DNA from: a virus
Taxonomy: Duplodnaviria > Caudoviricetes
DNA: 61,221 nucleotides
Direction: 5' to 3' (one strand)
IMG/VR virus record: IMGVR_UViG_3300031631_000002
Location: 1 to 61,221 of that record
Shown here: positions 21,431-36,050 of the stretch, in pieces
How positions within the stretch are numbered: position 1 is the first letter of the stretch
How the letters are laid out: each line of letters opens with the position of its first letter
Made by a program: the position numbers and the translations under genes
The notes under the pieces: model-generated
Told to the model about the DNA's origin: nothing
Seen by the model: only the letters and a program-made list of their open reading frames with translations
Databases searched by the model: none

Positions 21431-23137
21431 TTAAACTTTGCTATTTTTTATATTATATACAGCCATTGGTGGGCCAGCAGCGAAAGTATTTTTAGACAGC
21501 AGCCTCGATGCCATGCTGCAGTAAAGGCTTGAGTGGTGAATATGATCCTCCGCCTTCCCGTTAGGCTTCATCCATCTGTAACTTACGAACTCGTCTTCAC
21601 TGCCTCTGTAATCCCTCTGCCTGGACATAACAGACAGTTGGTCAAGCACCAGGTTGTCCATTGAAGATGCCTTGTACGCTATGAGCCCATTTACTACCTG
21701 GTCTGCGAAGTAATCAAAGGCTGGAGTCATGTTGATGTTTATTATTTTAATGTTTCCTACTGCTTCATCTTCTTTTGACTTCAATGAGAACAACTCTAAC
21801 TTTTTCGCTGACTGTGATGAGTTTGCATAAACAGCTGCCCAGGTGTTTGGGACTGTGTTTACAAAGTGAGCTGTTAACTCTGTGTAAGGTAGTAGATCTA
21901 TAACTCCTGACACACACCTGTACTCCCTTAGGAGCTTTGGCAAATCTATTCGAATAGATTTAAGTGGTAGAAACTCCACCCGGTGAATGTATAATCTTCC
22001 TTCTATTATGGATCCAATGGTAAGGCATGAGTGCTTGCCGACATCCAGGCCAAATACGTTAAGTTGTCCGGCTTCGTGGTTCTCGAACTTCACTTGGGTT
22101 ATATCTAATGCGTTCTCACGGGCTGATATTGGTTCAGCCAAGAACTGACACTTGAACTCATTCCTGTCGTCCATTTTTACCATATCTGTGATCAGATCAG
22201 ATGGTTTAACGTAGTGAGGTAAGTCAAAAGGGCCTATTTTCATGCCACGTTTTGGTAGATTTGGAGACTCTGCTACGTTAACCCACTCAGTGTGAGGGTG
22301 GCCGAATGGTGTAGGTTTGTGGCATCTTGGGCACTCTAAGTAGGATTTTGACACGTCAAGCTCTAGGTTAGTTATTTTACTGAGTGTCAGTGCCTGAAGT
22401 GGGTCGTTGTAACCCGGCAACTTAACATTCTCCCAGAAGTTTGGGAAAAATTCGTGATTGCACCGCTCACATTTCAGTATAGCCTGCCAGATGTGACCGC
22501 ACTTCTGAATTTCCAAATCTATATCTGAGTCTTTAAATCTTGGTGAGCTGAAGTATATGGTGGATTTGTGTTCCTGATGACGTTGACGAGCTGCCATGCT
22601 GGAGAGTGTCTTCATTGAGATGTATTGCAGTTCGTCAGCAACTATACATCGAAGAGGTCTTGAGATTGTTGTTGATTTTGACGTTCCGGACCCTGACAAA
22701 CCAAATATACAGGAGCCGTTTATGAGCCGCTTAAGTGATGCTGAGTCCACCTTCCTATCTTTCATGGCCTTAAGTGTAGGAGACCCGTCGATTATACTAG
22801 CTAGGCGTATTTTGAAGGTTTCAGAGGTCTGAGTTAGAGACGGCATCACAAGAGCAGCTGAAAAACCAGGTATCGTGGCGGCGTAAGCCATTAATACGCG
22901 GTATATAATCTCACTGGCTCCAGCTTGTGCTACTTTATGGCATACAAACTGCACGTCTGGATCTACCAACTCTTCCATCATCTTTAATTGATACTCATGG
23001 TGAAGAGTTGTGAAGGGTCTACCAAGTAAGAAGGTTTCCTCGGTTACAAATTTCTTTATCACGTCTTTCTGTGGTCTGATTGCAGTAGTTATTCTAGATA
23101 AAGATTGTTTTAATATTGGATTATCCGAGCAGTTCAT
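21431..23137 (-). CDS. terL: Terminase large subunit (lambda gpA-like)
   Basis: Walker A-like KVAQAGASE, Walker B IVADE, CxxC...CxxC zinc motif, nuclease motif FGLDVG. Confidence 0.9.
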   Translation of the reverse strand: MNCSDNPILKQSLSRITTAIRPQKDVIKKFVTEETFLLGRPFTTLHHEYQLKMMEELVDPDVQFVCHKVAQAGASEIIYRVLMAYAATIPGFSAALVMPSLTQTSETFKIRLASIIDGSPTLKAMKDRKVDSASLKRLINGSCIFGLSGSGTSKSTTISRPLRCIVADELQYISMKTLSSMAARQRHQEHKSTIYFSSPRFKDSDIDLEIQKCGHIWQAILKCERCNHEFFPNFWENVKLPGYNDPLQALTLSKITNLELDVSKSYLECPRCHKPTPFGHPHTEWVNVAESPNLPKRGMKIGPFDLPHYVKPSDLITDMVKMDDRNEFKCQFLAEPISARENALDITQVKFENHEAGQLNVFGLDVGKHSCLTIGSIIEGRLYIHRVEFLPLKSIRIDLPKLLREYRCVSGVIDLLPYTELTAHFVNTVPNTWAAVYANSSQSAKKLELFSLKSKEDEAVGNIKIININMTPAFDYFADQVVNGLIAYKASSMDNLVLDQLSVMSRQRDYRGSEDEFVSYRWMKPNGKAEDHIHHSSLYCSMASRLLSKNTFAAGPPMAVYNIKNSKV

Positions 23138-23402
23138 TCAACTTTTCCGTGAATATGTGGTATTTATCTGAGGGAAATATCTCTTTTGCCGCCTCTATTA
23201 GGGCTTGTTCTGTCTTTAGGATCAATTCCATATTTATTACTTCTGCTTGTGTTTTGGTAAGCTCTTTTATTATTGCAGTCAGCGCTGTCATTGCTGAAGC
23301 ACGGGAGCTGAAGGACTCATCTTGATCTTTAGATGCTTGCTCAGCAAGTCCCTCTATCCTAGTGAAATGAGCTGTTATCTCTTTGTTTAGGTCTATTTGC
23401 AT
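23121..23402 (-). CDS. Terminase small subunit (putative)
   Basis: Helical 93 aa overlapping the terL start. Confidence 0.55.
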   Translation of the reverse strand: MQIDLNKEITAHFTRIEGLAEQASKDQDESFSSRASAMTALTAIIKELTKTQAEVINMELILKTEQALIEAAKEIFPSDKYHIFTEKLNELLG

Positions 23403-23626
23403 CGATGGATGTAACTCCTGGAGGATTTAACGGTCATTGCATTTATCTCGGCTAAGACTGCTAGGACTTCTGAGGTAACTTGATTCCCACCCCTGTGAAG
23501 TGCCATGTGCAGGTTGTTAGTTAGCTGAGATAGGTCGCCTAGCATTTCGTTAGTGTTTCTGTATTTCCCATCTCTGTGGGTTAAGTTCTTGAATTCCTCG
23601 TCTGAGAGGTTATTTGGTATTTGCAT
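23393..23626 (-). CDS. Hypothetical protein
   Basis: Overlaps both neighbours in the same operon. Confidence 0.5.
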   Translation of the reverse strand: MQIPNNLSDEEFKNLTHRDGKYRNTNEMLGDLSQLTNNLHMALHRGGNQVTSEVLAVLAEINAMTVKSSRSYIHRCK

Positions 23627-23768
23627 TTGGGTATTCCTTGTCGATAGCTCTGCGAATAAGTTCTGACACAGTTAGACCTGTTGATGCTGAGATTGATCTT
23701 AATCTTTCTCGTTGAGGCGGTGTTATCGTCACCCCTACCTTAATTACTTTTAGTTTTGTACGTTTCAT
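23610..23768 (-). CDS. Ribbon-helix-helix regulator, 52 aa (not in ORF track)
   Basis: MKRTKLKVIKVGVTITPPQRERLRSISASTGLTVSELIRRAIDKEYPNANTK, CopG-like G.TVSELIRRAI; TTGACA-16-TGTAAT just upstream with almost no leader. Confidence 0.8.
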   Translation of the reverse strand: MKRTKLKVIKVGVTITPPQRERLRSISASTGLTVSELIRRAIDKEYPNANTK

Positions 23769-24223
23769 ATTGGTAGTATTACAGTACGGAATACCTCTTT
23801 GTCAATATCTTTTTGGAAAATATTTCTGGAATACCTCTTTACAGTTTGGTATCTGAGTCGAACAGTGCTCTAATGAGGGCCTGGTTCCATAAGTACCACA
23901 AAGCGGTACCCGTCAACCGTAAACTTTGTTTACGCCAGTGTAAACTTTGTTACCGTCAACGTTGTTCACACTTTAAGCGTTTCACTTTTTCGTCTCAAAA
24001 CATTTATAACGTAATGGCACGGTAATTGTTGCAAGCTATTATCATGTAATACCTAACACATTGATAGAGTGTAAAAATTTTTACGCGCTGGCGATGCAGA
24101 TTGAAGCAATCAAATCTTCATTATGATGAATAAAAGTAGTGCAATATTTGGCAAGGCATGTTAATATTGCATTGTTCCATTTAGATTAGATAAGATTTAT
24201 TCAACTTCACAAAGGCGGACCCA

Positions 24224-24319
24224 ATGCAAGAATTCTTTTCTCAGTCAATTTATGTAGCACTACTTGGAATTAATATATGTGTGTATTCTATAGTGTTAGC
24301 TATCATAAGCACTATATAA
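24224..24319 (+). CDS. 31-aa single-TM peptide (putative)
   Basis: MQEFFSQSIYVALLGINICVYSIVLAIISTI; weak RBS AAAGGCGG. Confidence 0.4.
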   Translation: MQEFFSQSIYVALLGINICVYSIVLAIISTI

Positions 24320-24340: not shown

Positions 24341-24478
24341 ATGTACGCATATAAAAATCTTTATTCTGCTATTGCAGAAGCTTACCAACAAGGCGCCATA
24401 TCCACGCGCCTTTCGGGGTGGATAAATCTAGACGTCTGCACGTGCGGTGCGCCCACTCACGTGGGTTGTTGTTGGTAG
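24341..24478 (+). CDS. 45-aa Cys-rich microprotein
   Basis: AGGAG RBS; MYAYKNLYSAIAEAYQQGAISTRLSGWINLDVCTCGAPTHVGCCW. Confidence 0.55.
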   Translation: MYAYKNLYSAIAEAYQQGAISTRLSGWINLDVCTCGAPTHVGCCW

Positions 24479-24926
24479 TCAAGCTTTAAAGCCGACTAAC
24501 TTTTGATAGTCGGTTGATCTTCTCTACATGCTAGATTATAAGCAAACGGAATTACAGCTCTGTGACAAGGGTATCACCCTTGTGATTCTTATAACTCCCA
24601 TATCTAGCCTTCACGCTTGTCGTGGTCACATAAAATAGTTGAACGGCTAGTTAGTAAGTAGTCAAGCAAGATACTTACTGGTTAGATCATCAAGATACCA
24701 CATTGTTTTAACCTTCAGTAATTTCAAATTTGCAGGCATTAACACAAAGAAAAAGCGCACTTATCCCTTCTCTTTCCCTTGTGCCTGTACCTCTTTCACA
24801 TAACATTTATTTTCTCATTATCTTGGTAGAATAAAGCCCGACTATTTTCGTGATAATTATTCTGTTTATTTTCTTTTTCTTGTTCTTTTTCCTAGTTAAT
24901 AAAAAATTTTTCTTGGAGAAATAAAA

Positions 24927-25577
24927 ATGTCAAACAATCAATTTAGTAAAGCAGTAGAAAGTTTTAAAACTTATTCCCTCACAACCGCTAATTTTTTCTC
25001 TTCATGCCGCCGACAGGGTATGACTAGAAAAGATTATGAAACGTGGTCGGTGCAAGAGTTGTGTGCTATGTCAGACGTTATAAAGGAGTACGCGTTTAAA
25101 AAAGACGGTTCGGTCAAAACCGTCTCTGCCGTCTGGAAAAACTTTACTCCCGCTAAAAATAAGGCGGACCGCGGTACATTAGACTGGTCTATAGCTTTCG
25201 CGAATAGCAGTATGGTAGGTTATTCAAACTATCTGAAAGCAAACGGCCTTGATCCAAAAACTTGTAAAGCGGCACCTGTATTATTGTATCCAGTACTTGA
25301 GGCCGTTGTTAACGAGGCCGCTGTGAACGAGGCCGCTGTGAACGAGGCCGCTGTGAACGAGGCCGCTGTGAACGAGGCCACCGTGAACGAGGCCGCTGTG
25401 AACGAGGCCGCTGTGAACGAGCTAACAAGCTTAAAAGAACAGGTAATGGGTAAAGAAGAGCATTTCTTGACCGTACAAAAAGCGGTACTTGCTATCATAT
25501 CGGGAGTCAACGAGAAGAAGACAAAAGCTCAATTGCTCGAAGCAATCAATGAGATTGAAAAAATCGTTAATTGTTAA
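24927..25577 (+). CDS. Orphan protein with (EAAVN)8 linker and C-terminal helical domain
   Basis: GGAGAAATAAAAATG RBS, 216 aa, no family recognised. Confidence 0.85.
   Translation: MSNNQFSKAVESFKTYSLTTANFFSSCRRQGMTRKDYETWSVQELCAMSDVIKEYAFKKDGSVKTVSAVWKNFTPAKNKADRGTLDWSIAFANSSMVGYSNYLKANGLDPKTCKAAPVLLYPVLEAVVNEAAVNEAAVNEAAVNEAAVNEATVNEAAVNEAAVNELTSLKEQVMGKEEHFLTVQKAVLAIISGVNEKKTKAQLLEAINEIEKIVNC
25299..25421 (+). repeat. 15-bp coding tandem repeat, 8 copies
   Basis: Unit GAGGCCGCTGTGAAC, with two variant copies. Confidence 0.95.
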
Positions 25578-25594
25578 TACTAACTATAGTAAAA

Positions 25595-25841
25595 ATTCAA
25601 GTTACTAATTTTAGTAACTTGAATAGCCGGACAAAGAACAAGAAAAAGAAAATAAACGATTTTACTAAAATTTAGTAAAAATAACCGTTAAGCGATTAGT
25701 TCAGAATCGTTAACGGAATTTTTGCGTTTACTGGATTTTAGTAAGTTTTCAGAATTTACTAAAATTTAGTAAAATTTGCTAGTATCCACGCCTTGATTGG
25801 AAAGGATAACCAGCAATTACATTTTACTAAATTTTAGTAAA
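25595..25841. repeat. Cluster of five TTACT(A/G)(A/G)-N-TTAGTAA palindromes
   Basis: 25595-25624, 25660-25680, 25728-25744, 25755-25773, 25823-25841; a sixth copy at 31988-32004. Confidence 0.9.
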
Positions 25842-26152
25842 CGATATTACGTAATTCACTTGTGAGTGAATGTATCGGAAAATGAAATAAACAGAATATG
25901 CTAAAATGATTGGGTAATATTTTGGGTTAACAAAACTGAAATACTTGGAATGTTGAGCCGTAAGAATGTTTTCTATGAAAATGTTTGAGGCATGTCACTC
26001 GATCTAGCGAAAAGAACCAGCCTAGCAAGCTGGTTCTGATTTGCCAGCACAATTGCGTGGTGGCAAATTGGAACCAACTAACTTTTACTCTCTCCAGAGA
26101 GTAAACATTTAAAGAAGTGATGTCAAGAATCCTAAACTATAAAAGGAGAATG

Positions 26153-26521
26153 ATGATGACAAAATTCTTAGCAGTATGCAAAACAATAAGAAAGAACGAG
26201 AAATTCAAACGTGCCGCATTAGTAAGTAGCATGGACGGCCTACAGGACGCCCTGTGTGTCCCTTACAAAGAAGGCGTGAATTTGTATGCCTTAGTATGCC
26301 TTCATCCGTTTGAAGGCGTGAGCGGACAGCAATGGGCAGCAAGACACCTATTTGGCGGCGGATCGTCGGCAATGAAGAAATTGACAAAATTTGAAGTGGA
26401 AATAACGCCAATAATTGTGAAAGAGGAATCACGCTCGATAAGAGCAGAATTTGAGCGTTCATGCGATCCTAGGATGATCGGCTTGGGAAGTAAAGAAACA
26501 AGACTATGTAATATCTTATAA
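26153..26521 (+). CDS. Hypothetical early protein
   Basis: AAAGGAG RBS before ATGATGATG. Confidence 0.7.
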   Translation: MMTKFLAVCKTIRKNEKFKRAALVSSMDGLQDALCVPYKEGVNLYALVCLHPFEGVSGQQWAARHLFGGGSSAMKKLTKFEVEITPIIVKEESRSIRAEFERSCDPRMIGLGSKETRLCNIL

Positions 26522-26533
26522 AGGAGAAAACGT

Positions 26534-26656
26534 ATGGAAATAACATTTGAGTATTATTGTGTGCTGAGATCACACTCATGGAGCCGTCACAAAGCATATG
26601 CAAAGAGAAACAAGAGAACACATTACCCGTTCTTCTCCTATTACTTATCGACCTAA
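26534..26656 (+). CDS. 40-aa basic microprotein
   Basis: AAGGAG RBS; MEITFEYYCVLRSHSWSRHKAYAKRNKRTHYPFFSYYLST. Confidence 0.55.
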   Translation: MEITFEYYCVLRSHSWSRHKAYAKRNKRTHYPFFSYYLST

Positions 26657-26831
26657 CTTTTTACTCTCTCTGGAGAGTAAACTTTAATAAAGACAATGTA
26701 AAGTAGAAAATACATTAATTTCAGAAACAAGCCCTAACAAATTAACCTAGCAAATCACTATCCAACAATTACAGTTAGTTAGAAATAATTCTAACTAGTA
26801 TCACCACCTAACACACTCAAGGAGAAATAAA

Positions 26832-27505: not shown

Positions 27506-27569
27506 GTAATTTCCTTTAGTTACAAATTAAAATTCACTCCCAGCCGAGTTAGGCTACCCTAATGCCAAG

Positions 27570-27862
27570 TGGCTGACACTTTCCGGCACTTTCCTGACAG
27601 TGGGATAACCAATGTCAGTATGTCTAAGATCCAGATTCCTGACACTTTTTACAAACAATCCTCCTATAGAAAAATTTTTTCAAGGGGTATGCGACAAACA
27701 GTCCGATAACGGCAAAAACAACCGTTTCACTACAATGTGGTATCTTTTTAAAAAATATTTTTCATATAATAGTATTTAGTAATAAAGTGTCAGGATTCTG
27801 GATCTTAACCATACTACCATTAACTATCCAACTGTCAGGAAAGTGTCGGAAAGTGTCAGCCA
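27570..27862. repeat. 79-bp imperfect inverted repeat, candidate replication origin
   Basis: Arms 27570-27648 and 27784-27862 match at 69/79 by manual count; internal (T/C)GACACTTT-like units; 135-bp AT-rich spacer; just downstream of the primase-helicase gene. Confidence 0.8.
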
Positions 27863-27909
27863 AGGGCTTTGTCAGCAAAGTGTCAGGACTCTCTAACACA
27901 TGGAGCAAC

Positions 27910-30573
27910 TTAAATCTCCAAACAGATCCCATTAAAGTACCTCCCATCTTCCTTACGTTCTGCGAACACATTATTGACCTCTTCAACCTTATTATAAAAC
28001 TCGTTTCTTGATACTTGCTCCATGCTACCATCAATACAAAACTCTTTATATTTATCCCACATCCCTGTCCTTAGAACTTTCATACCGTGACCAATTCTAC
28101 ACTTATCAAGTATGAACGTTTCAACTGAGTCTACAGACTGAGCCCAAGACCGAAACAATTCTCCACTATGTGCATCAACCGACTTGTTTTCAATCCACAT
28201 CTTAACACCGTTTATCAGCCAAGCAAGAACTCCAGGTAATTCATGAGCAATTATCCCTACCTCCATCCCATCTATAACTTCATTGTGGTTATGTTGAAAT
28301 TCAACTATAAACCCAGACAAACGTCTTTCAATCTCACTAGAGAATGAATCCAACCTAGGCCAAGCATTCATACTAACAACAAAACTACAGGGACACTCAA
28401 ACTCAACCGTATCCCTGAATAAATTCCTTCCGGACATCAAGTCCCGACCTGTAGCCATTTTGAATCCGGCCGTGTTCACTGGCTTATCATTTCTACCTGT
28501 GTTTTTCTTAACCTCCGGAATGAAATTAATAACTGAGTCCTTCAAACCAATAACCCGCTCCAAAACATTAAGCATACCAAAACTCAAAGCAGTAACGCGA
28601 CCTCTGGGTAGGATGCTCAACATGATTCTTTGTAGAGTTCCTTTACCAACTCCACCTGGACCCTTCATTACAATAGCCTGTTGGAGATCAGTAAGGCTTC
28701 CACACATAGCCAACCCAAGTCCTTTTTGCAGACATTCAACATTAACCACATTATGTAATAACTGATCAAACATTGGAGTTTTCATTTCAAAATCAGGTTC
28801 GAAGGTCAATTTGAATCTGGCCCCTAAATCCTTATCATATGGAATACTATCAACAGAAGGTTTGTCACCTACAACCTCTGTCCTCCAGAAGCTATTAGAA
28901 CATGGGAAGCCGTGAGAGCCTCTCCACGCGTCAACTTTATTTCCAGCGGTAGCTAGGGTGTGTTTTACTACTTGAGCATACTGAGAGCCGGTACGGCACA
29001 GCTTGACCCCTTCATACTTAGTGCCGACAGCCTTTAATAAGATTCCATTATCCTTTTTATTCCAGATAGTCTTATCAAAAGCATACATTTCACCGCCAAA
29101 AACTCTGTAGTCTTTAAACCCTTTAAGTATATCAACAGATAAACGATGGTGGGTTGACTCTGGATTAATTGTGTTAGCATCATCTTCCTCTTTTATATCT
29201 TCAGCTCTGGAAACAACAGCATCCTTTAAATCCAAACGTATGTCTGTTTTAGTGAGGTCTAATTTATCAGCTATCCTACCAGCCAGCTTACTTTCAGAGG
29301 CCTTGCTGAGTTCAGTCTTAAGTAAAAACTCCTCATACCAATCCTCAATCTCATCTCTGGGAGAGTCCTTAATCCACTGTAACAGGTCAGTAGGGTCGAA
29401 CTTAAGCTCATAAACTTCGCCGCCGTGAGCAAATGAATTAAGTATGGTACGGTCGTCATTAACAAATATCTTACACTTACCTGCACCGTATTCTGGCTCT
29501 AAAGGAGGGCGGAAACCTCCTACCTCGTTCCAGTCATCACCGTTGAGCAGGACGTCAAGAACACTAACTTCACTCATGTCATCCTTAATAAGAAAGTCAG
29601 TGCTGAGTAAAACTCCAGCCCTTCTACTTTTGACAGTTCTCTTTGCAATAGATCGTTTAACTCCCTTAGCGGTCAGTCCGTCAATACTAAGAGCATCGTA
29701 GTCTTTCTTTACCTTCTGTACTTCAGGAGAGCTCTTGAGGTCATTCAAATAGTCCTTAACCTCGTAGTCATACGCCTCTTTAATGCCGAGCTCGTCAAAC
29801 CTAGACACAGCCAACTCAGCATCCAGAACTCCTCCAGGGACGTACTCACAGCCGCGAGGAATTGTAGAGTAATCACCCTCAACAGTGCAGTCAGATTCAA
29901 AAACCAAACGCTCTGGTGTTTTGACAGCTTCATCAACAACTGTTCTAGCGAGTACATTACCAGATCTTGTGACCATATGACTCTTGAATCTTAACCAAGC
30001 AAGCTTAAATAAGTATTCGATAACAAGCTTGTCAGCGTTTCTTACTGGGAAGAATATGTGGAGGCCGTTACTAGACTTCTTACCTTCAGGATTTAGGACT
30101 CCTGCTGAAGATGATTCTCTAATCCATCTGCATAAGGTATTCCTTGACTCGCCGTCCTTTCCTATTATGCATCCTGAAAGAACTTCTTCTGTGTAGTCTA
30201 TAAATTGCCCAACCTCTTCCTCGCTCCATTCCCCATGGGCAGAGCCACCATCAACATCAAGGTACATAAGACTTACTGAGTCTGAGTTGCAGTATTTAAA
30301 ATACTCCTTAGTGCGGGATATGATTCCGTTTTCTATATCTTCTCTTCCTTTGAGTCTTATCTTAAATTCATCAAGGCCACTAACTCCAAGGACTAGTGCC
30401 TTTGATGGTTGAGCTCCTAGAGAGGTTATATAATCAGACACATCAGTGATCGGGATGTTTACTGTTCTTCCAGTAGCCCCATAAACAGCCGCCTGAGCTT
30501 TCTTACCCGACTCGCTAACACATTTATTTATAGGTCCATTATCATTAGTAATTTCACTTATAATTATATTCAT
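27910..30573 (-). CDS. Primase-helicase (primase-like N-terminus plus D5/P4-family SF3 helicase)
   Basis: YLDVDG and GLHIFF primase motifs; Walker A GPGGVGKGT; FKMATGRD; C-terminal winged-helix-like domain. Start taken at MNIII, overlapping the HTH gene stop. Confidence 0.88.
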   Translation of the reverse strand: MNIIISEITNDNGPINKCVSESGKKAQAAVYGATGRTVNIPITDVSDYITSLGAQPSKALVLGVSGLDEFKIRLKGREDIENGIISRTKEYFKYCNSDSVSLMYLDVDGGSAHGEWSEEEVGQFIDYTEEVLSGCIIGKDGESRNTLCRWIRESSSAGVLNPEGKKSSNGLHIFFPVRNADKLVIEYLFKLAWLRFKSHMVTRSGNVLARTVVDEAVKTPERLVFESDCTVEGDYSTIPRGCEYVPGGVLDAELAVSRFDELGIKEAYDYEVKDYLNDLKSSPEVQKVKKDYDALSIDGLTAKGVKRSIAKRTVKSRRAGVLLSTDFLIKDDMSEVSVLDVLLNGDDWNEVGGFRPPLEPEYGAGKCKIFVNDDRTILNSFAHGGEVYELKFDPTDLLQWIKDSPRDEIEDWYEEFLLKTELSKASESKLAGRIADKLDLTKTDIRLDLKDAVVSRAEDIKEEDDANTINPESTHHRLSVDILKGFKDYRVFGGEMYAFDKTIWNKKDNGILLKAVGTKYEGVKLCRTGSQYAQVVKHTLATAGNKVDAWRGSHGFPCSNSFWRTEVVGDKPSVDSIPYDKDLGARFKLTFEPDFEMKTPMFDQLLHNVVNVECLQKGLGLAMCGSLTDLQQAIVMKGPGGVGKGTLQRIMLSILPRGRVTALSFGMLNVLERVIGLKDSVINFIPEVKKNTGRNDKPVNTAGFKMATGRDLMSGRNLFRDTVEFECPCSFVVSMNAWPRLDSFSSEIERRLSGFIVEFQHNHNEVIDGMEVGIIAHELPGVLAWLINGVKMWIENKSVDAHSGELFRSWAQSVDSVETFILDKCRIGHGMKVLRTGMWDKYKEFCIDGSMEQVSRNEFYNKVEEVNNVFAERKEDGRYFNGICLEI

Positions 30574-30770
30574 CAACAATCTCCCCAAAGCAATTCTGGG
30601 TAGTCAACAATGCCAAAAGTCTTCGAGACAATTATGTGAGCGTTCCTTAAAGTGACGCACTTTATATTTTCCTTGCAGATGTTGTAAGTTGTAGCTCTTG
30701 AGATTCCTAAATACTCTGACAATTGGTCGTAATTTAACTTCTTGTTTTTGCGGTAAGTTTCAAGCTTCAT
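30573..30770 (-). CDS. Cro/XRE-like helix-turn-helix regulator
   Basis: LETYRKNKKLNYDQLSEYLGISRATTYNI. Confidence 0.85.
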   Translation of the reverse strand: MKLETYRKNKKLNYDQLSEYLGISRATTYNICKENIKCVTLRNAHIIVSKTFGIVDYPELLWGDC

Positions 30771-31653: not shown

Positions 31654-32281
31654 TTCACCCAGGTTGCTGGGAAACAAGGCAAAATAAATGAAAAGGAGAA
31701 ACAAAATGAAAACTTACATCACGGTAGAGTGTCCAGAGCAGGATAATATACACAGGTTCATATTGAATGCTGTGTCTTTACAGTCAGGGCGGTTGAGAGT
31801 AGACAGAGCGTTTATGAAGTTTGGTATCGAACCAATGGTTATTACATCTGACTTGCGTCCTGATTGGCACTTTAATAAATACGGAGTCCTCCATACTGTA
31901 ACTATAAATAACAAGTATGAACTACGTGGCAACATGCACACAAAGGCATTCTACTAGATTTAGAATATTAACGTTCACCCAGATCTTTTACTAAATTTTA
32001 GTAATCTTCAAAGGAGAATCAAAATGGCATTTCAAACACATTCAGAACCATGTGGTTTCAACCCACACTATAGGCAGGGGTTCGGTGAAGAAGTATCACG
32101 AAAGTATGCCTTACTGTGTAAAAATAACAGAGGGCTTACGAGAGCTCTCAGGAAGAGAGCTTATAGAGTTATAGCAGACTTAATCGAAGACGATTTCCCA
32201 ACAACCGTACAGCTTGGTACGTTTCACCCAGGTTGCTGGGAAACAAGGCAAAATAAATGAAAAGGAGAATCAAAATGAAAA
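31654..32281 (+). repeat. 59-bp direct repeat (31654-31712 and 32223-32281)
   Basis: TTCACCCAGGTTGCTGGGAAACAAGGCAAAATAAATGAAAAGGAGAA(A/T)CAAAATGAAAA, one mismatch. Confidence 0.95.
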
Positions 32282-34387: not shown

Positions 34388-35341
34388 ATGTGTAATTTCT
34401 GGAGTTGTATCGTACTAAAAGACAAGACAGTTATAAGTGAGATTGGCATTGACAACCACCACGAGTTGGTTGAGATGTTTAATCTGGAGGACAGCAGTGA
34501 CATAAGATCACAATTAAAGTTTGCCAAGGTAGAAATAGTACCACCTGAGAACGATCCATTCAAACCCATTAGTGAGTGGAAGTTTGAAGTTGATGAAAGG
34601 GTAAAGCCTGAGTGGTTTTCACCTGCGCATGAAGACGTTTGTTGGATTAGGCTGAAAGAAGTATTGAAAGAGGTTTTGATAACCGAAGACGTTGCTGAGT
34701 TAACAGGAAGAAAAGGATTGTTTCTGAAAGATTGTGTAGTAGGCAAACTAACAAATTCAGTTGTTCAGAAGATGTTCAACTCTTCAGTTGTTCAGAATAT
34801 GTCCGACTCTTCAGTTGTTCAGAATATGTCCGACTCTTCAGTTGTTAAGAGGATGTCCGGCTCTTCAGTTGTTCAGGAGATGTTCGACTCTTCAGTTGTT
34901 CAGAATATGTTCGACTCTTCAGTTGTTCAGAGGATGTACGGCTCTTCAGTTGTTCAGAGGATGTACGGCTCTTCAGTTGTTCAGAGGATGTACGGCTCTT
35001 CAGTTGTTCAGAATATGTTCGACTCTTCAGTTGTTCAGAATATGTTCGACTCTTCAGTTGTTAAGAGGATGTCCGGCTCTTCAGTTGTTCAGGAGATGTT
35101 CGACTCTTCAGTTGTTCAGAATATGTTCGACTCTTCAGTTGTTCAGAAGATGTTCAACTCTTCAGTTGTTCAGGAGATGTTCGACTCTTCAGTTGTTCAG
35201 GAGATGTTCGACTCTTCAGTTGTTCAGGATATGTCCGGCTCTTCAGTTGTTGTTAGACACATAGGACATACAACTATAAAAGACAACGCAGTGACACTAA
35301 CGTGGGACACAGGCACAGCTAACCTAACAAGGAGTAAATAA
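34388..35341 (+). CDS. Protein with 18 nonapeptide repeats (probable beta-solenoid)
   Basis: N-terminal MCNFWS...HHEL...VEIVPP...PEWF domain followed by SSVV(Q/K)xM(F/S/Y)(D/G/N) repeats. Confidence 0.85.
   Translation: MCNFWSCIVLKDKTVISEIGIDNHHELVEMFNLEDSSDIRSQLKFAKVEIVPPENDPFKPISEWKFEVDERVKPEWFSPAHEDVCWIRLKEVLKEVLITEDVAELTGRKGLFLKDCVVGKLTNSVVQKMFNSSVVQNMSDSSVVQNMSDSSVVKRMSGSSVVQEMFDSSVVQNMFDSSVVQRMYGSSVVQRMYGSSVVQRMYGSSVVQNMFDSSVVQNMFDSSVVKRMSGSSVVQEMFDSSVVQNMFDSSVVQKMFNSSVVQEMFDSSVVQEMFDSSVVQDMSGSSVVVRHIGHTTIKDNAVTLTWDTGTANLTRSK
34754..35251 (+). repeat. 27-bp coding tandem repeat, 18 copies plus a partial copy
   Basis: Core TCTTCAGTTGTT followed by a variable 15 nt. Confidence 0.95.
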
Positions 35342-36050
35342 TGTCAATTTTCAAAACAGTAGATGAAACCCACAGATCCTGCAACATAGACGCTGTCATG
35401 TGGGAGCCTGCTGATGGTATGATAGAGGTAAAAGGATGGTTTGTTGACCGGGCTATTGATAGATTCAACAGTAGTTTACCCAAGGAGAACAAAAATGATT
35501 AAGCCAGTAGATATACAAGCAAGTGAGCCAGAGTACATAAAGATGTCAGATATGAAACCCCTTGATATTGGAGTAACGCGGGAAACCAGTAGAACTGTAA
35601 TGAGAACGGCAAGCCGCAGTAAATTCGAAGTAATGGACTTGTCAATTCCTAGTCCCGGCAGTTGTTGGGGGCGAGACTGTGGTATGTTAGTAAAACTACT
35701 CAAATCAGGAACCAAAATAACACTTGAGGTACAATAGAGTCTTAGGGTTAAAGAACTTGAAAATGATGAAATAGGAGAGGCATATGTCCACAACACCAAT
35801 AGTTTCAAAAGTACTGAATATGTTGAATAACGGTTATTCCTTGGATGAGATCGAAACTAACTTGGAAGAATCAGCTGCTGCCAGGCAGATAGATTTGACT
35901 AATGAAGTTAACAAAGCAATACATGAGATTTCAGAAGTAGAAAATGACCTCATACACACACTACATGACATAGAGGAGATTGTATCGAAGAATTCAAGAG
36001 TAAAATCAGCACTTCTTGACATAAAATCAAGACTTTAGGATGATAAAACT

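Follow-up and report, generated by a model that had tools for sequence, protein, structure and literature searches.

An orphan gene between two complementary tracts

Why should a single orphan gene of an uncultured marine phage, early and fast-varying, be flanked by a pyrimidine tract and a purine tract that are exact reverse complements of each other? The locus lies at 24.9-25.9 kb of a 61.2-kb record, analysed here as one window (the whole stretch of 61,221 nucleotides). The original prediction had interpreted the flanking complementarity as a leader-trailer stem that releases or circularises the mRNA, a conformational switch between two alternative 3' partners, or a signal in single-stranded DNA similar to the injection-stop region of phage T5. 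A repeat search recovered two arms of 29 nt, 97% complementary and with 736 nt between them, which are referred to here as stem A:

24864-24892, plus strand: pyrimidine tract forming the 5' arm, within the predicted 5' UTR (exact part 24864-24888)
25629-25657, plus strand: purine tract forming the 3' arm, with 7 of 8 AAN triplets from position 25634 (read by eye)

The perfect 25-nt complement described at both sides of the ORF starting at 24927 proved exact (24864-24888 against 25633-25657) and, if one mismatch is admitted, reaches 29 nt, giving 28 of 29 pairs, 25 of them uninterrupted Watson-Crick pairs without a G-U in the window. No exact inverted repeat with arms within 3 kb is longer anywhere in the window, where shuffles of local composition (n = 30) reached maxima of 12-16 nt, and a match to the 25-mer appeared in 0 of 100 dinucleotide shuffles. 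Even when up to three mismatches were allowed, the 25-mer had two sites only in the 61-kb window. By our own arithmetic, 25 matches in a row between two complementary low-complexity tracts (~0.51 match per position) would have a probability of ~6e-8. The same pyrimidine 20-mer was found once each in 11 unrelated IMG/VR contigs, and at the fetched locus none of the 11 carried an inverted partner with up to six substitutions. Shuffled low-complexity sequence, which had been foreseen as a possible source of such matches, thus fails to yield stem A, and the repeat is confirmed as real and non-random. Neither arm is dyad-symmetric in itself, as read from the sequence.

The predicted transcription unit

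On the plus strand, the elements of the locus follow each other in the order promoter-like site, 5' arm, Shine-Dalgarno sequence, ORF, hairpin 1, 3' arm, and terminator-like hairpin with its U-run. Both arms of stem A are therefore placed outside the ORF, between the predicted promoter and the predicted terminator:

24795-24832, plus strand: promoter-like stretch (scan: TTCACA-18-TATCTT at 24795-24824)
24886-24921, plus strand: weak local hairpin in which 24886-24892 pairs with the Shine-Dalgarno GGAGAAA at 24915-24921 (-6.9 kcal/mol, z -0.46)
24927-25577, plus strand: orphan ORF of 216 aa, in which an (NEAAV)n linker separates an N-terminal part from a helical C-terminal part
25299-25420, plus strand: 15-nt tandem repeat coding NEAAV, with a copy number that varies among relatives
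25595-25624, plus strand: hairpin 1, a stem of 13-14 bp located 18 nt past the stop codon, with a TTACTAA..TTAGTAA core at its top
25661-25679, unstranded: 19-nt perfect palindrome TTTACTAAAATTTAGTAAA, first copy, abutted by the 3' arm of stem A
25685-25726, plus strand: terminator-like hairpin of 7 + 5 bp with one bulged G and a 7-nt loop, followed by AATTTTTG

Two terminator-like hairpins (24490-24583) close the upstream unit, and an extended -10 motif recognised by eye (TGGTAGAAT at 24824-24832) sets the predicted transcription start at ~24833-24841. A consensus-level scan found 9 promoter-like sites in the region, against 10.3 expected from shuffles, which means no enrichment; the block of low divergence among the relatives starts at ~24793. 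At the other end of the unit, the terminator-like hairpin is present in the centroid fold but absent from a simple terminator scan, and its natural variants fall on the bulge, on the loop and on one U-A pair that becomes U-G. Full compensatory changes were observed in hairpin 1, where 2 of 13 pairs are altered on both sides in two of four sequences. The same hairpin had been listed by the scan as a terminator of the minus strand, a candidate that we rejected: its T-run is degraded in the relative L008 (25592 A>G) and no minus-strand gene enters it. A comparison with Rfam at gathering thresholds yielded no match, and only two chance-level matches to plant miRNAs appeared at E values up to 1; a tRNA search found none. 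The initial impression that no known RNA family is represented here held for Rfam, but pairing between 5' and 3' UTRs as such has precedents in the icaR and hbs mRNAs.

A proposed helix joining both ends of an early mRNA

The reading that we favour, if tentatively, is that the 25/29-nt repeat would be an RNA element pairing the 5' UTR with the 3' UTR of a monocistronic early mRNA, either as a substrate of RNase III or as a stabilising panhandle. We regard this as the best reading because the 5' arm falls between the promoter-like site and the Shine-Dalgarno sequence, and the 3' arm between hairpin 1 and the terminator-like hairpin. Stem A is present in both the minimum free energy and the centroid structures of the 893-nt predicted transcript (z -7.3 against 20 shuffles), and across four versions of the transcript its pairs have a mean probability of 0.84-0.96, under a thermodynamic model that leaves out translation and co-transcriptional folding over 736 nt. 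In local folds both arms are unpaired, save for the final 7 nt of the pyrimidine arm, with stable hairpins alongside. The duplex has a predicted energy of -37.1 kcal/mol and exceeds about two helical turns of double-stranded RNA; the natural substrate of RNase III is a helix of about two turns or more. As for translation initiation, the anti-Shine-Dalgarno hairpin at 24886-24921 is not significant alone and excludes the inner end of stem A, which stops at 24892, 23 nt upstream of the GGAG at 24915-24918, and so leaves the Shine-Dalgarno sequence uncovered.

According to the proposed mechanism, the host RNA polymerase would start at ~24833-24841 and stop at the hairpin and U-run of 25685-25726. 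As long as the purine arm is still to be transcribed, the pyrimidine tract of the leader would be single-stranded, and its last 7 nt could weakly mask the Shine-Dalgarno sequence. Once the purine arm is transcribed, the arms would zip through 25 perfect pairs and three more, at about -37 kcal/mol, looping out the entire coding region of the hypervariable orphan gene. Host RNase III might then cut the helix, which would trim leader and trailer with the ends of the transcript still paired, and the helix, cut or uncut, would set the stability and translation of the ORF mRNA.

Relatives carrying the locus comprise one IMG/VR contig and two short contigs from a metagenome scan. Megablast and blastn searches against GenBank phages gave no match. 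Part of the stretch is carried by 15 sequencing runs, none of those listed being RNA, a blank that is in itself uninformative. The contigs of four DNA runs, too short to span the locus, revealed no new arm variants and no strand-changing joints. The original prediction depended on homologues keeping the flanking complementarity, and these relatives do keep it: in L014, an independent assembly like L008, both arms are identical to the reference, in L008 stem A is retained as 29 nt at 93% complementary, and L015 covers the 3' arm only. In three assemblies 27-29 of 29 positions remain complementary. The 5' arm is identical in L008 and L014, and the 3' arm varies at 25637 (A>G in L008 and L015) and 25657 (C>T in L015). 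Conservation of the flanks does not single out the arms, because 0-3% is the genome-wide baseline of these close relatives; in this regard, an argument for UTR constraint from 1-2% divergence versus ~30% at third codon positions was dropped, the ORF itself being the outlier.

Among these close relatives, all 207 cells of a four-helix model are standard pairs, and stem A shows no covariation, with 27 of 28 pairs invariant and one showing a one-sided U-A/U-G change. Every substitution within a stem results in a G-U pair on the plus strand and would result in A-C on the minus strand. Stem A has two such changes (25637 A>G and 25657 C>T), the terminator hairpin has one, and another, 25740 A>G, lies in a degenerate palindrome described below. 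With a rough null of ~0.3 per event for a G-U-compatible substitution, the probability is ~0.01 for the four changes and only ~0.07 for the two in stem A. Placement, folds, variants that preserve pairing and the compensatory changes in a neighbouring hairpin thus speak, if indirectly, for the leader-trailer stem. The lack of any recombinase or transposase among the families listed for 46 ORFs is also in its favour. For circularisation of the mRNA we find no evidence.

A second 3' partner

A second pairing for the 5' region had been described further downstream, together with weaker G-U pairing continuing outward:

24858-24877, plus strand: 5' arm of stem B, sharing 14 nt with stem A
25879-25898, plus strand: 3' arm of stem B, 3' of the terminator-like hairpin
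25904-25916, plus strand: partner of the outward G-U extension, pairing with 24836-24848 (seen in the sequence)

The geometry is as reported, with stem A looping out the ORF alone and stem B enclosing the hairpin array too, and the second partner is indeed there, 14 nt exact (24858-24871 with 25885-25898) and 20 nt at 90%. Its 14-nt match, however, falls within the shuffle range of 12-16, no better than chance in the window. The duplex energy with the 5' region is -31.7 / -31.2 kcal/mol for stem B, versus -39.5 / -37.1 for stem A, and among 4068 sliding 60-nt windows that of stem B is matched or bettered by five in unrelated purine-rich regions. In the same way, the outward G-U extension exists in the sequence but is at chance level, with a pair probability of 0.0 in all three full folds containing it. 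Since stem B is at chance level and thermodynamically minor, a conformational switch between two 3' partners is unsupported.

An elaboration of the end-pairing model, very unlikely in our judgement, would give this second partner a role. The panhandle would act as a gate, with the mRNA translatable and nuclease-resistant only once its 3' end is made; RNase III, by cutting the 25-bp stem, would free a trimmed, end-paired mRNA and a structured 3' small RNA or chaperone sponge, and the read-through partner at 25879-25898 would re-route the leader, as in lambda sib. The 3' fragment in this scheme carries two hairpins and a U-tail besides the (AAN)n tract, and the enclosed protein is cast as a rapidly diversifying host-takeover or anti-defence protein.

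The enclosed gene and the mobility of its segment

Judged by its sequence, 24927-25577 is a genuine coding gene, with differences to L008 that fall mostly at third codon positions (12, 10 and 54 of 169 sites each). A search of 5.8 billion proteins returned six near-identical proteins, and in a profile search of 1.84 billion representatives 56 of 56 non-self matches were confined to query positions 92-202, the part that contains the NEAAV repeat. Going by these searches, homologues of the 216-aa protein are limited to about six near-identical phages. That the protein belongs to no known family, as first suspected, is borne out by Pfam, PHROGs and NCBIfam, with nothing above cut-offs, and by PDB sequences, with nothing below E = 0.07. 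The best score in the ESM Atlas was 0.87, under the bar of 0.9, and an AlphaFold2 model had a mean pLDDT of 46.6.

In alignments the ORF is a hypervariable island within an otherwise 97-100% identical background. Its divergence is mosaic and amounts to 18-36% differences per 200 nt, and because such an island sits in a background of 0-3%, we infer that recombination acts at the ORF. The repeat could then be a functionless trace of the origin or exchange of the cassette, a short inverted duplication left by recombination at the hypervariable gene, in agreement with the mosaic divergence and with a divergent patch whose right end is only a few bases away from the 3' arm. On the left, however, the patch starts away from the 5' arm, within the ORF at ~25030; cassette exchange is not promoted by inverted, as against direct, repeats; and complementarity persists in three assemblies. 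We therefore consider this trace unlikely.

Inverted repeats of 25-29 nt around a 736-bp segment that contains the ORF without its promoter would also fit the geometry of an invertible segment, or of a small transposable cassette, switching the gene on and off. This we hold to be most improbable. The inverted orientation was seen in 0 of the 2 relatives with both flanks (L008 and L014), the right junction of L015 is in the reference orientation as well, and the lack of strand-changing joints in the four DNA runs points the same way, if weakly, as it comes from contigs only. No recombinase, integrase or transposase occurs among the 25 listed of 26 Pfam families for 46 ORFs of the window, from a record estimated to be 75% complete, nor any recombinase or transposase in the 8-9 neighbouring ORFs. 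Moreover, no target-site duplication or direct repeat abuts the arms (by eye), the arms have no internal dyad symmetry, and two copies only of the arm sequence in the window argue against a transposable cassette.

Sites in DNA or a small RNA as possible alternatives

A 25-mer of perfect Watson-Crick pairs without G-U fits a DNA-level repeat at least as well as an RNA stem. The arms, two AT-rich tracts, could be inverted DNA copies of an element for protein binding, bending or unwinding, with no RNA role, a reading to which we give a minor but appreciable chance. The perfect copies in the window agree with it, and so does the location of the locus where late and early gene blocks diverge. Four 19-nt palindromes, the first of them directly next to the 3' arm (TTTACTAAAATTTAGTAAA is found again at 25755-25773 and 25823-25841, with a degenerate copy at 25727-25745), are perfect to the centre, as is more typical of a protein site than of an RNA hairpin, and a distant copy lies 6 kb off, at 31987-32005, before another early gene. 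As the DNA reading has it, this would be a regulatory region where TTACTAA-N-TTAGTAA palindromes are the operators or iterons of a dimeric protein that binds DNA, perhaps the ORF product; four palindromes adjoining a purine tract also bring to mind an iteron-type origin. Against a DNA element, the ORF received no DNA-binding family or fold from family searches or from its AlphaFold2 model, and neither arm has dyad symmetry. A much better origin candidate exists at 27570-27862, where a 79-nt inverted repeat of CTGACACTTT units surrounds an AT-rich spacer beside a primase-helicase gene. Furthermore, the variants all keep G-U compatibility on one strand, a property not required of a DNA site.

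The purine tract might instead function in trans, as part of a 3'-UTR-derived small RNA (25625-25726) that pairs with the pyrimidine leader of its own mRNA or of others, or titrates an RNA chaperone, a possibility that we find quite unlikely. Such an RNA would have an A-rich single-stranded seed together with two hairpins and a U-tail. The local fold, which leaves 25629-25657 unpaired before two hairpins and a U-run, is compatible with it, as are the AAN triplets, which may resemble the ARN motifs bound by Hfq. The 3-nt periodicity, however, has an estimated chance of ~0.05, the small RNA has no known promoter or processing site of its own, and the sole full-length target in the window is the 5' arm in cis.

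Comparison with known systems

To our knowledge, pairing of both untranslated ends of a bacterial mRNA has been documented in few cases (icaR and hbs), with short duplexes, and a non-exhaustive literature search uncovered no phage in which a perfect 25-bp helix surrounds an entire cistron. If the end-pairing helix forms, the locus would offer a clean and easily mutated model for the timing or stabilisation of an early phage transcript by means of host RNase III or end-pairing. Paired tracts of purines and pyrimidines on both sides of an ORF would then be a marker that can be searched for in phage genomes, and they would point here to an orphan, hypervariable and repeat-bearing early protein, of a kind often involved in host takeover.

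Among systems acting on DNA, the invertible segments of Hin, Gin and Cin are flanked by inverted repeats, whereas in the present locus only one orientation is seen, no recombinase was found (listed families) and the arms are not dyad-symmetric. The injection-stop region of T5 is a non-coding block, rich in palindromes and repeats, in the terminal repeat that enters the cell first. As far as the record goes, the locus described here is neither in a terminal repeat nor near an end: it lies in the middle of a record without end repeats, where late and early genes diverge, and we find no evidence for the suggested signal in single-stranded or injected DNA.

At the RNA level, the leader-trailer stems of 16S and 23S rRNAs are helices of at least two turns that flank a functional RNA and are cut by RNase III for its release; they enclose non-coding RNA, whereas the phage helix would enclose a cistron. 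The RNase III sites of phage T7 early mRNAs are local hairpins between genes, in contrast to a stem around a whole cistron. In the retroregulation of lambda int, the sib element is again a local hairpin, and becomes an RNase III site only in transcripts that pass the terminator. Its counterpart would be the second partner beyond the hairpin array, but stem B is at chance level here and out-competed by stem A.

The nearest likenesses are found in two bacterial mRNAs. In the icaR mRNA of Staphylococcus aureus, the 3' UTR pairs with its own 5' UTR, forms a substrate of RNase III and controls the enclosed gene, with a short UCCCCUG motif that pairs with the Shine-Dalgarno region and blocks initiation (PMC3868564). 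The phage locus would share with that description the pairing of a 3' UTR with its own 5' UTR around a single gene, here predicted. By comparison, the predicted phage helix is of 25-29 bp, ends 23 nt upstream of the Shine-Dalgarno sequence, and would if anything release the weak anti-Shine-Dalgarno pairing. In the monocistronic hbs mRNA of Bacillus subtilis, a long-range 14-bp pairing between 5' and 3' UTRs modulates endonuclease access and stability, acting on cleavage by RNase Y and RNase J1 (PMC5737220). Next to the hbs pairing, the predicted phage helix is twice as long and perfect, and because of this a double-strand-specific nuclease would fit it better.

Genomic setting

The window (61,221 bp) is linear and lacks end repeats, with a completeness estimate of about 75%. 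A protein identical to the orphan ORF product (P0001 in the protein search) is recorded on two contigs, and because the longer one (61,690 bp) is close to the window in size, the record may be nearer completeness than that estimate implies. The locus lies within the mostly non-coding 23.8-26.1 kb gap that separates the late and early blocks:

1-23768, minus strand: late genes, including a 1977-aa tail protein
21431-23137, minus strand (late block): GpA-type large terminase
26117 onward, plus strand: early and replication genes
27910-30588, minus strand: primase-helicase

Pfam matches in the plus-strand block comprise a family A DNA polymerase, ligase, flap exonuclease, SNF2-type helicase and dNMP kinase. 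The terminase shares just 22-25% identity with its closest GenBank phages (Vibrio and Pseudoalteromonas phages), and a DNA-level similarity search of GenBank phages gave no match to the window. The terminase operon is headed by a ribbon-helix-helix-like 52-aa protein (23610-23980 region; weak CopG/ORF56-type matches below cut-offs), and the direct repeats just upstream of it (GGAATACCTCTTT twice, GTAAACTTTGTT twice plus one degenerate copy) could serve as operators or, on the cos/pac side, as terminase-recognition sites. On the early side, the hairpin TTTACTCTC-loop-GAGAGTAAA (9-bp stem; loops TCCA / TCTG) is repeated at 26083-26105 and 26659-26681, upstream of two consecutive early genes; it may act in processing, as a terminator or in association with a promoter.

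A long inverted repeat around an orphan gene

The original observation of a perfect 25-nt complement flanking the ORF was borne out: the exact 25 nt were found within the longer stem A, alongside a weaker alternative:

24864-24892 / 25629-25657: arms of stem A, 29 nt, 97% complementary, 736 nt apart (inverted-repeat search)
24858-24871 / 25885-25898: stem B, 14-nt exact match, extending to 20 nt at 90%
24836-24848 / 25904-25916: G-U extension of stem B

Stem A is the longest exact inverted repeat of the window for pairs within 3 kb, followed by 21- and 20-nt palindrome pairs in the same locus and then by 16 nt. Chance was checked on shuffled sequence: 30 shuffles keeping local composition reached maxima of 12-16 nt against the 25 nt observed, and the 25-mer, allowing up to 3 mismatches, was matched in none of 100 dinucleotide shuffles. 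For two complementary tracts composed in this way the chance of a match is about 0.51 at each position, which by our arithmetic gives ~6e-8 for 25 consecutive matches, so that low complexity is an insufficient explanation of stem A. Moreover, 11 unrelated IMG/VR contigs each contain a single copy of the pyrimidine 20-mer of the 5′ arm, and at none of these 11 loci does it have an inverted partner, with up to 6 substitutions allowed.

For the second 3′ partner that had been proposed, the 14-nt match is present, but its length is inside the shuffle range. In a scan of 4068 windows, duplex energies with the leader were −31.7 / −31.2 kcal/mol for stem B versus −39.5 / −37.1 for stem A, and five windows in unrelated purine-rich regions equalled or exceeded stem B. 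As for the outward G-U pairing, the B duplex including it is 10 kcal/mol better on the plus than on the minus strand, but in full folds containing each element the pair probability was 0.0 for the extension, 0.00-0.37 for stem B and 0.84-0.96 for stem A. Given these shuffle, energy and pair-probability results, stem A is real, stem B and its extension are unproven, and the suggested switch between two 3′ partners is not supported.

The enclosed gene and its relatives

The orphan ORF (24927-25577, 216 aa) has GGAG 8 nt ahead of its ATG. Differences from three relatives at codon positions 1/2/3 (12/10/54, 10/11/50 and 12/7/47; 169 sites per position) concentrate at third positions, a pattern indicating that this is a genuine coding gene. 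Searches of Pfam, PHROGs, NCBIfam and PDB sequences returned nothing usable for its product, all leads of an Atlas search were sub-threshold, and in a profile search of 1.84 billion representatives the 56 non-self matches (56/56) were confined to the repeat-spanning positions 92-202. A search of 5.8 billion proteins gave six, at 81-100% identity and with the query included, and the AlphaFold2 model is poor (pLDDT 46.6). A 15-nt tandem repeat within the ORF encodes (NEAAV)n, whose copy number differs among relatives, giving proteins of 174-220 aa. A 27-nt tandem repeat in ~20 copies (34648-35349) lies within ORF 34388-35341, which encodes a second repeat-bearing early protein (317 aa).

The relatives are exclusively close ones, namely one IMG/VR contig (L008, L010, L016, L017) and two short metagenome contigs (L014, L015). 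They keep the flanking complementarity: the 5′ arm is identical to the window in L008 and L014, and L015 begins within it. L014 matches the window in the 3′ arm too; L008 and L015 share 25637 A>G there, to which L015 adds 25657 C>T. Leader and trailer diverge by 1-2% versus ~30% at third codon positions. A strong constraint on them was considered and dropped, as 0-3% differences per 200 nt is the genome baseline for the parts shared with the relative contig and the ORF is the outlier. The orphan gene is thus hypervariable and its flanks sit at baseline divergence, so their conservation is hardly informative on the arms themselves. Divergent islands comprise the ORF (18-36%), 24400-24800 (13-15%), 23200-23600 and 26400-26800, the last three being divergent or replaced patches; past the terminase, the relative contig's structural module either aligns at only ~66% identity or does not align. 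The stretch from the terminase side to the orphan gene contains small hydrophobic ORFs at 24224-24319 (31 aa in the window); at the matching place (740-990) L014, read by eye, appears to have another and more extensive group of small ORFs of membrane-like character.

The orphan gene alleles are mosaics of one another. That stem A is a functionless scar of cassette exchange we consider quite unlikely: the right end of the hypervariable patch is the 3′ arm, but its left end starts at ~25030, inside the ORF. An invertible or transposable cassette is highly improbable, with a single orientation of the gene relative to its flanks in all relatives, no joints in contigs of four DNA runs, no target duplication, an arm sequence occurring just twice in the window, and no recombinase, integrase or transposase among 25 of the 26 Pfam families found (46 ORFs).

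Transcription signals and folding

The predicted signals follow one another in an order that fits a single monocistronic unit on the plus strand:

24490-24515, 24565-24583: two upstream terminator-like hairpins (terminator scan)
24795-24824: promoter-like site (promoter scan)
24824-24832: extended −10 TGGTAGAAT (read by eye)
24864-24892: 5′ arm of stem A, with the Shine-Dalgarno (SD) 23 nt later and then the ORF
25595-25624: hairpin 1, downstream of the ORF
25629-25657: 3′ arm of stem A, starting 4 nt past hairpin 1, with a palindrome hairpin next
25685-25726: 12-bp hairpin and U-run
25661-25841: palindrome TTTACTAAAATTTAGTAAA, three exact copies and one degenerate

Local folds leave the purine arm and most of the pyrimidine arm unpaired between stable flanking hairpins (z = −5.5 for the 3′ region); pairing is possible between the ribosome-binding-site GGAGAAA and the final 7 nt of the 5′ arm (−6.9 kcal/mol, not significant). 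A trans-acting RNA derived from this 3′ UTR is improbable. In folds of the predicted 893-nt transcript, stem A is present in the MFE and centroid alike. When a model of stem A and three local hairpins was applied to a four-sequence alignment, all 207 cells (207/207) held standard pairs. In stem A 27 of 28 pairs are invariant and one is U-A/U-G; hairpin 1 has both sides changed in 2 of 13 pairs, in 2 of the 4 sequences; one pair of the terminator hairpin is U-A/U-G, and the remaining variants there fall on bulge and loop. If the degenerate palindrome's 25740 A>G is counted, and also 25657 C>T, whose partner L015 lacks, all four stem substitution events can pair as G-U on the plus strand, where the minus strand would have A-C. 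With 0.3 per event as a rough null, the probability is ~0.01 overall but only ~0.07 for the two events of stem A, which is suggestive of plus-strand RNA pairing, not decisive.

The palindrome array and a possible DNA-level role

We consider a role at the DNA level, linked to the palindrome array, unlikely, if somewhat plausible: the palindromes are perfect to their centre, resembling sites for a dimeric protein, and the purine arm adjoins the first of them, but a far better origin candidate exists at 27570-27862. The TTTACTAAAATTTAGTAAA core also makes the top of hairpin 1. A sixth TTACTAA-N3-TTAGTAA copy (31987-32005), 20 nt ahead of the ribosome-binding site of an early gene, replaces the CCCAGG..CTGGG hairpin holding the same place in neighbouring intergenic repeats (31654-31712, 32223-32281). 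The 27570-27862 region, which looks like a replication origin, contains a 79-nt inverted repeat (27570-27648 / 27784-27862, 87% complementary) made of repeated CTGACACTTT(CC) units (region 27563-27892) that flanks a 135-nt AT-rich spacer directly downstream of the primase-helicase gene; conservation of the region in the relative contig is 99-100%. Nothing except that repeats are present supports the T5-like injection signal once suggested.

Proposed mechanism and comparison with known systems

The most economical reading of stem A is a leader-trailer RNA helix of an early mRNA, which we predict tentatively. RNase III requires about two helical turns of duplex, a requirement that the length of stem A matches; its 25 perfect pairs exceed what is needed for hiding a site, and the helix does not cover the SD. 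For these reasons we favour processing and stability control over direct translational repression. RNase III cleavage would leave an mRNA with its ends still paired; alternatively, an uncut panhandle would shield both ends. Formation of stem A might also displace the weak anti-SD pairing, with the possible secondary effect of releasing it once the 3′ end is made. The leader-trailer helix has functional analogies in rRNA leader-trailer stems, T7 RNase III sites and lambda sib.

No Rfam family matched the locus, and a non-exhaustive literature search found no example of a phage cistron enclosed by such a helix. Stem A is a genuine, lineage-specific structure, best filed provisionally under mRNA end-to-end pairing, and the closest precedents are the 5′/3′-UTR pairings of the icaR and hbs mRNAs. 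In icaR, a 3′-UTR motif pairs with the SD region, the resulting duplex preventing initiation and serving as a substrate for RNase III (PMC3868564), and in hbs a 14-bp interaction between the UTRs modulates RNase Y cleavage (PMC5737220). Stem A differs from both in enclosing a phage gene and in its much longer and perfect helix, and from icaR in that the icaR pairing takes in the SD region, whereas stem A leaves it outside.
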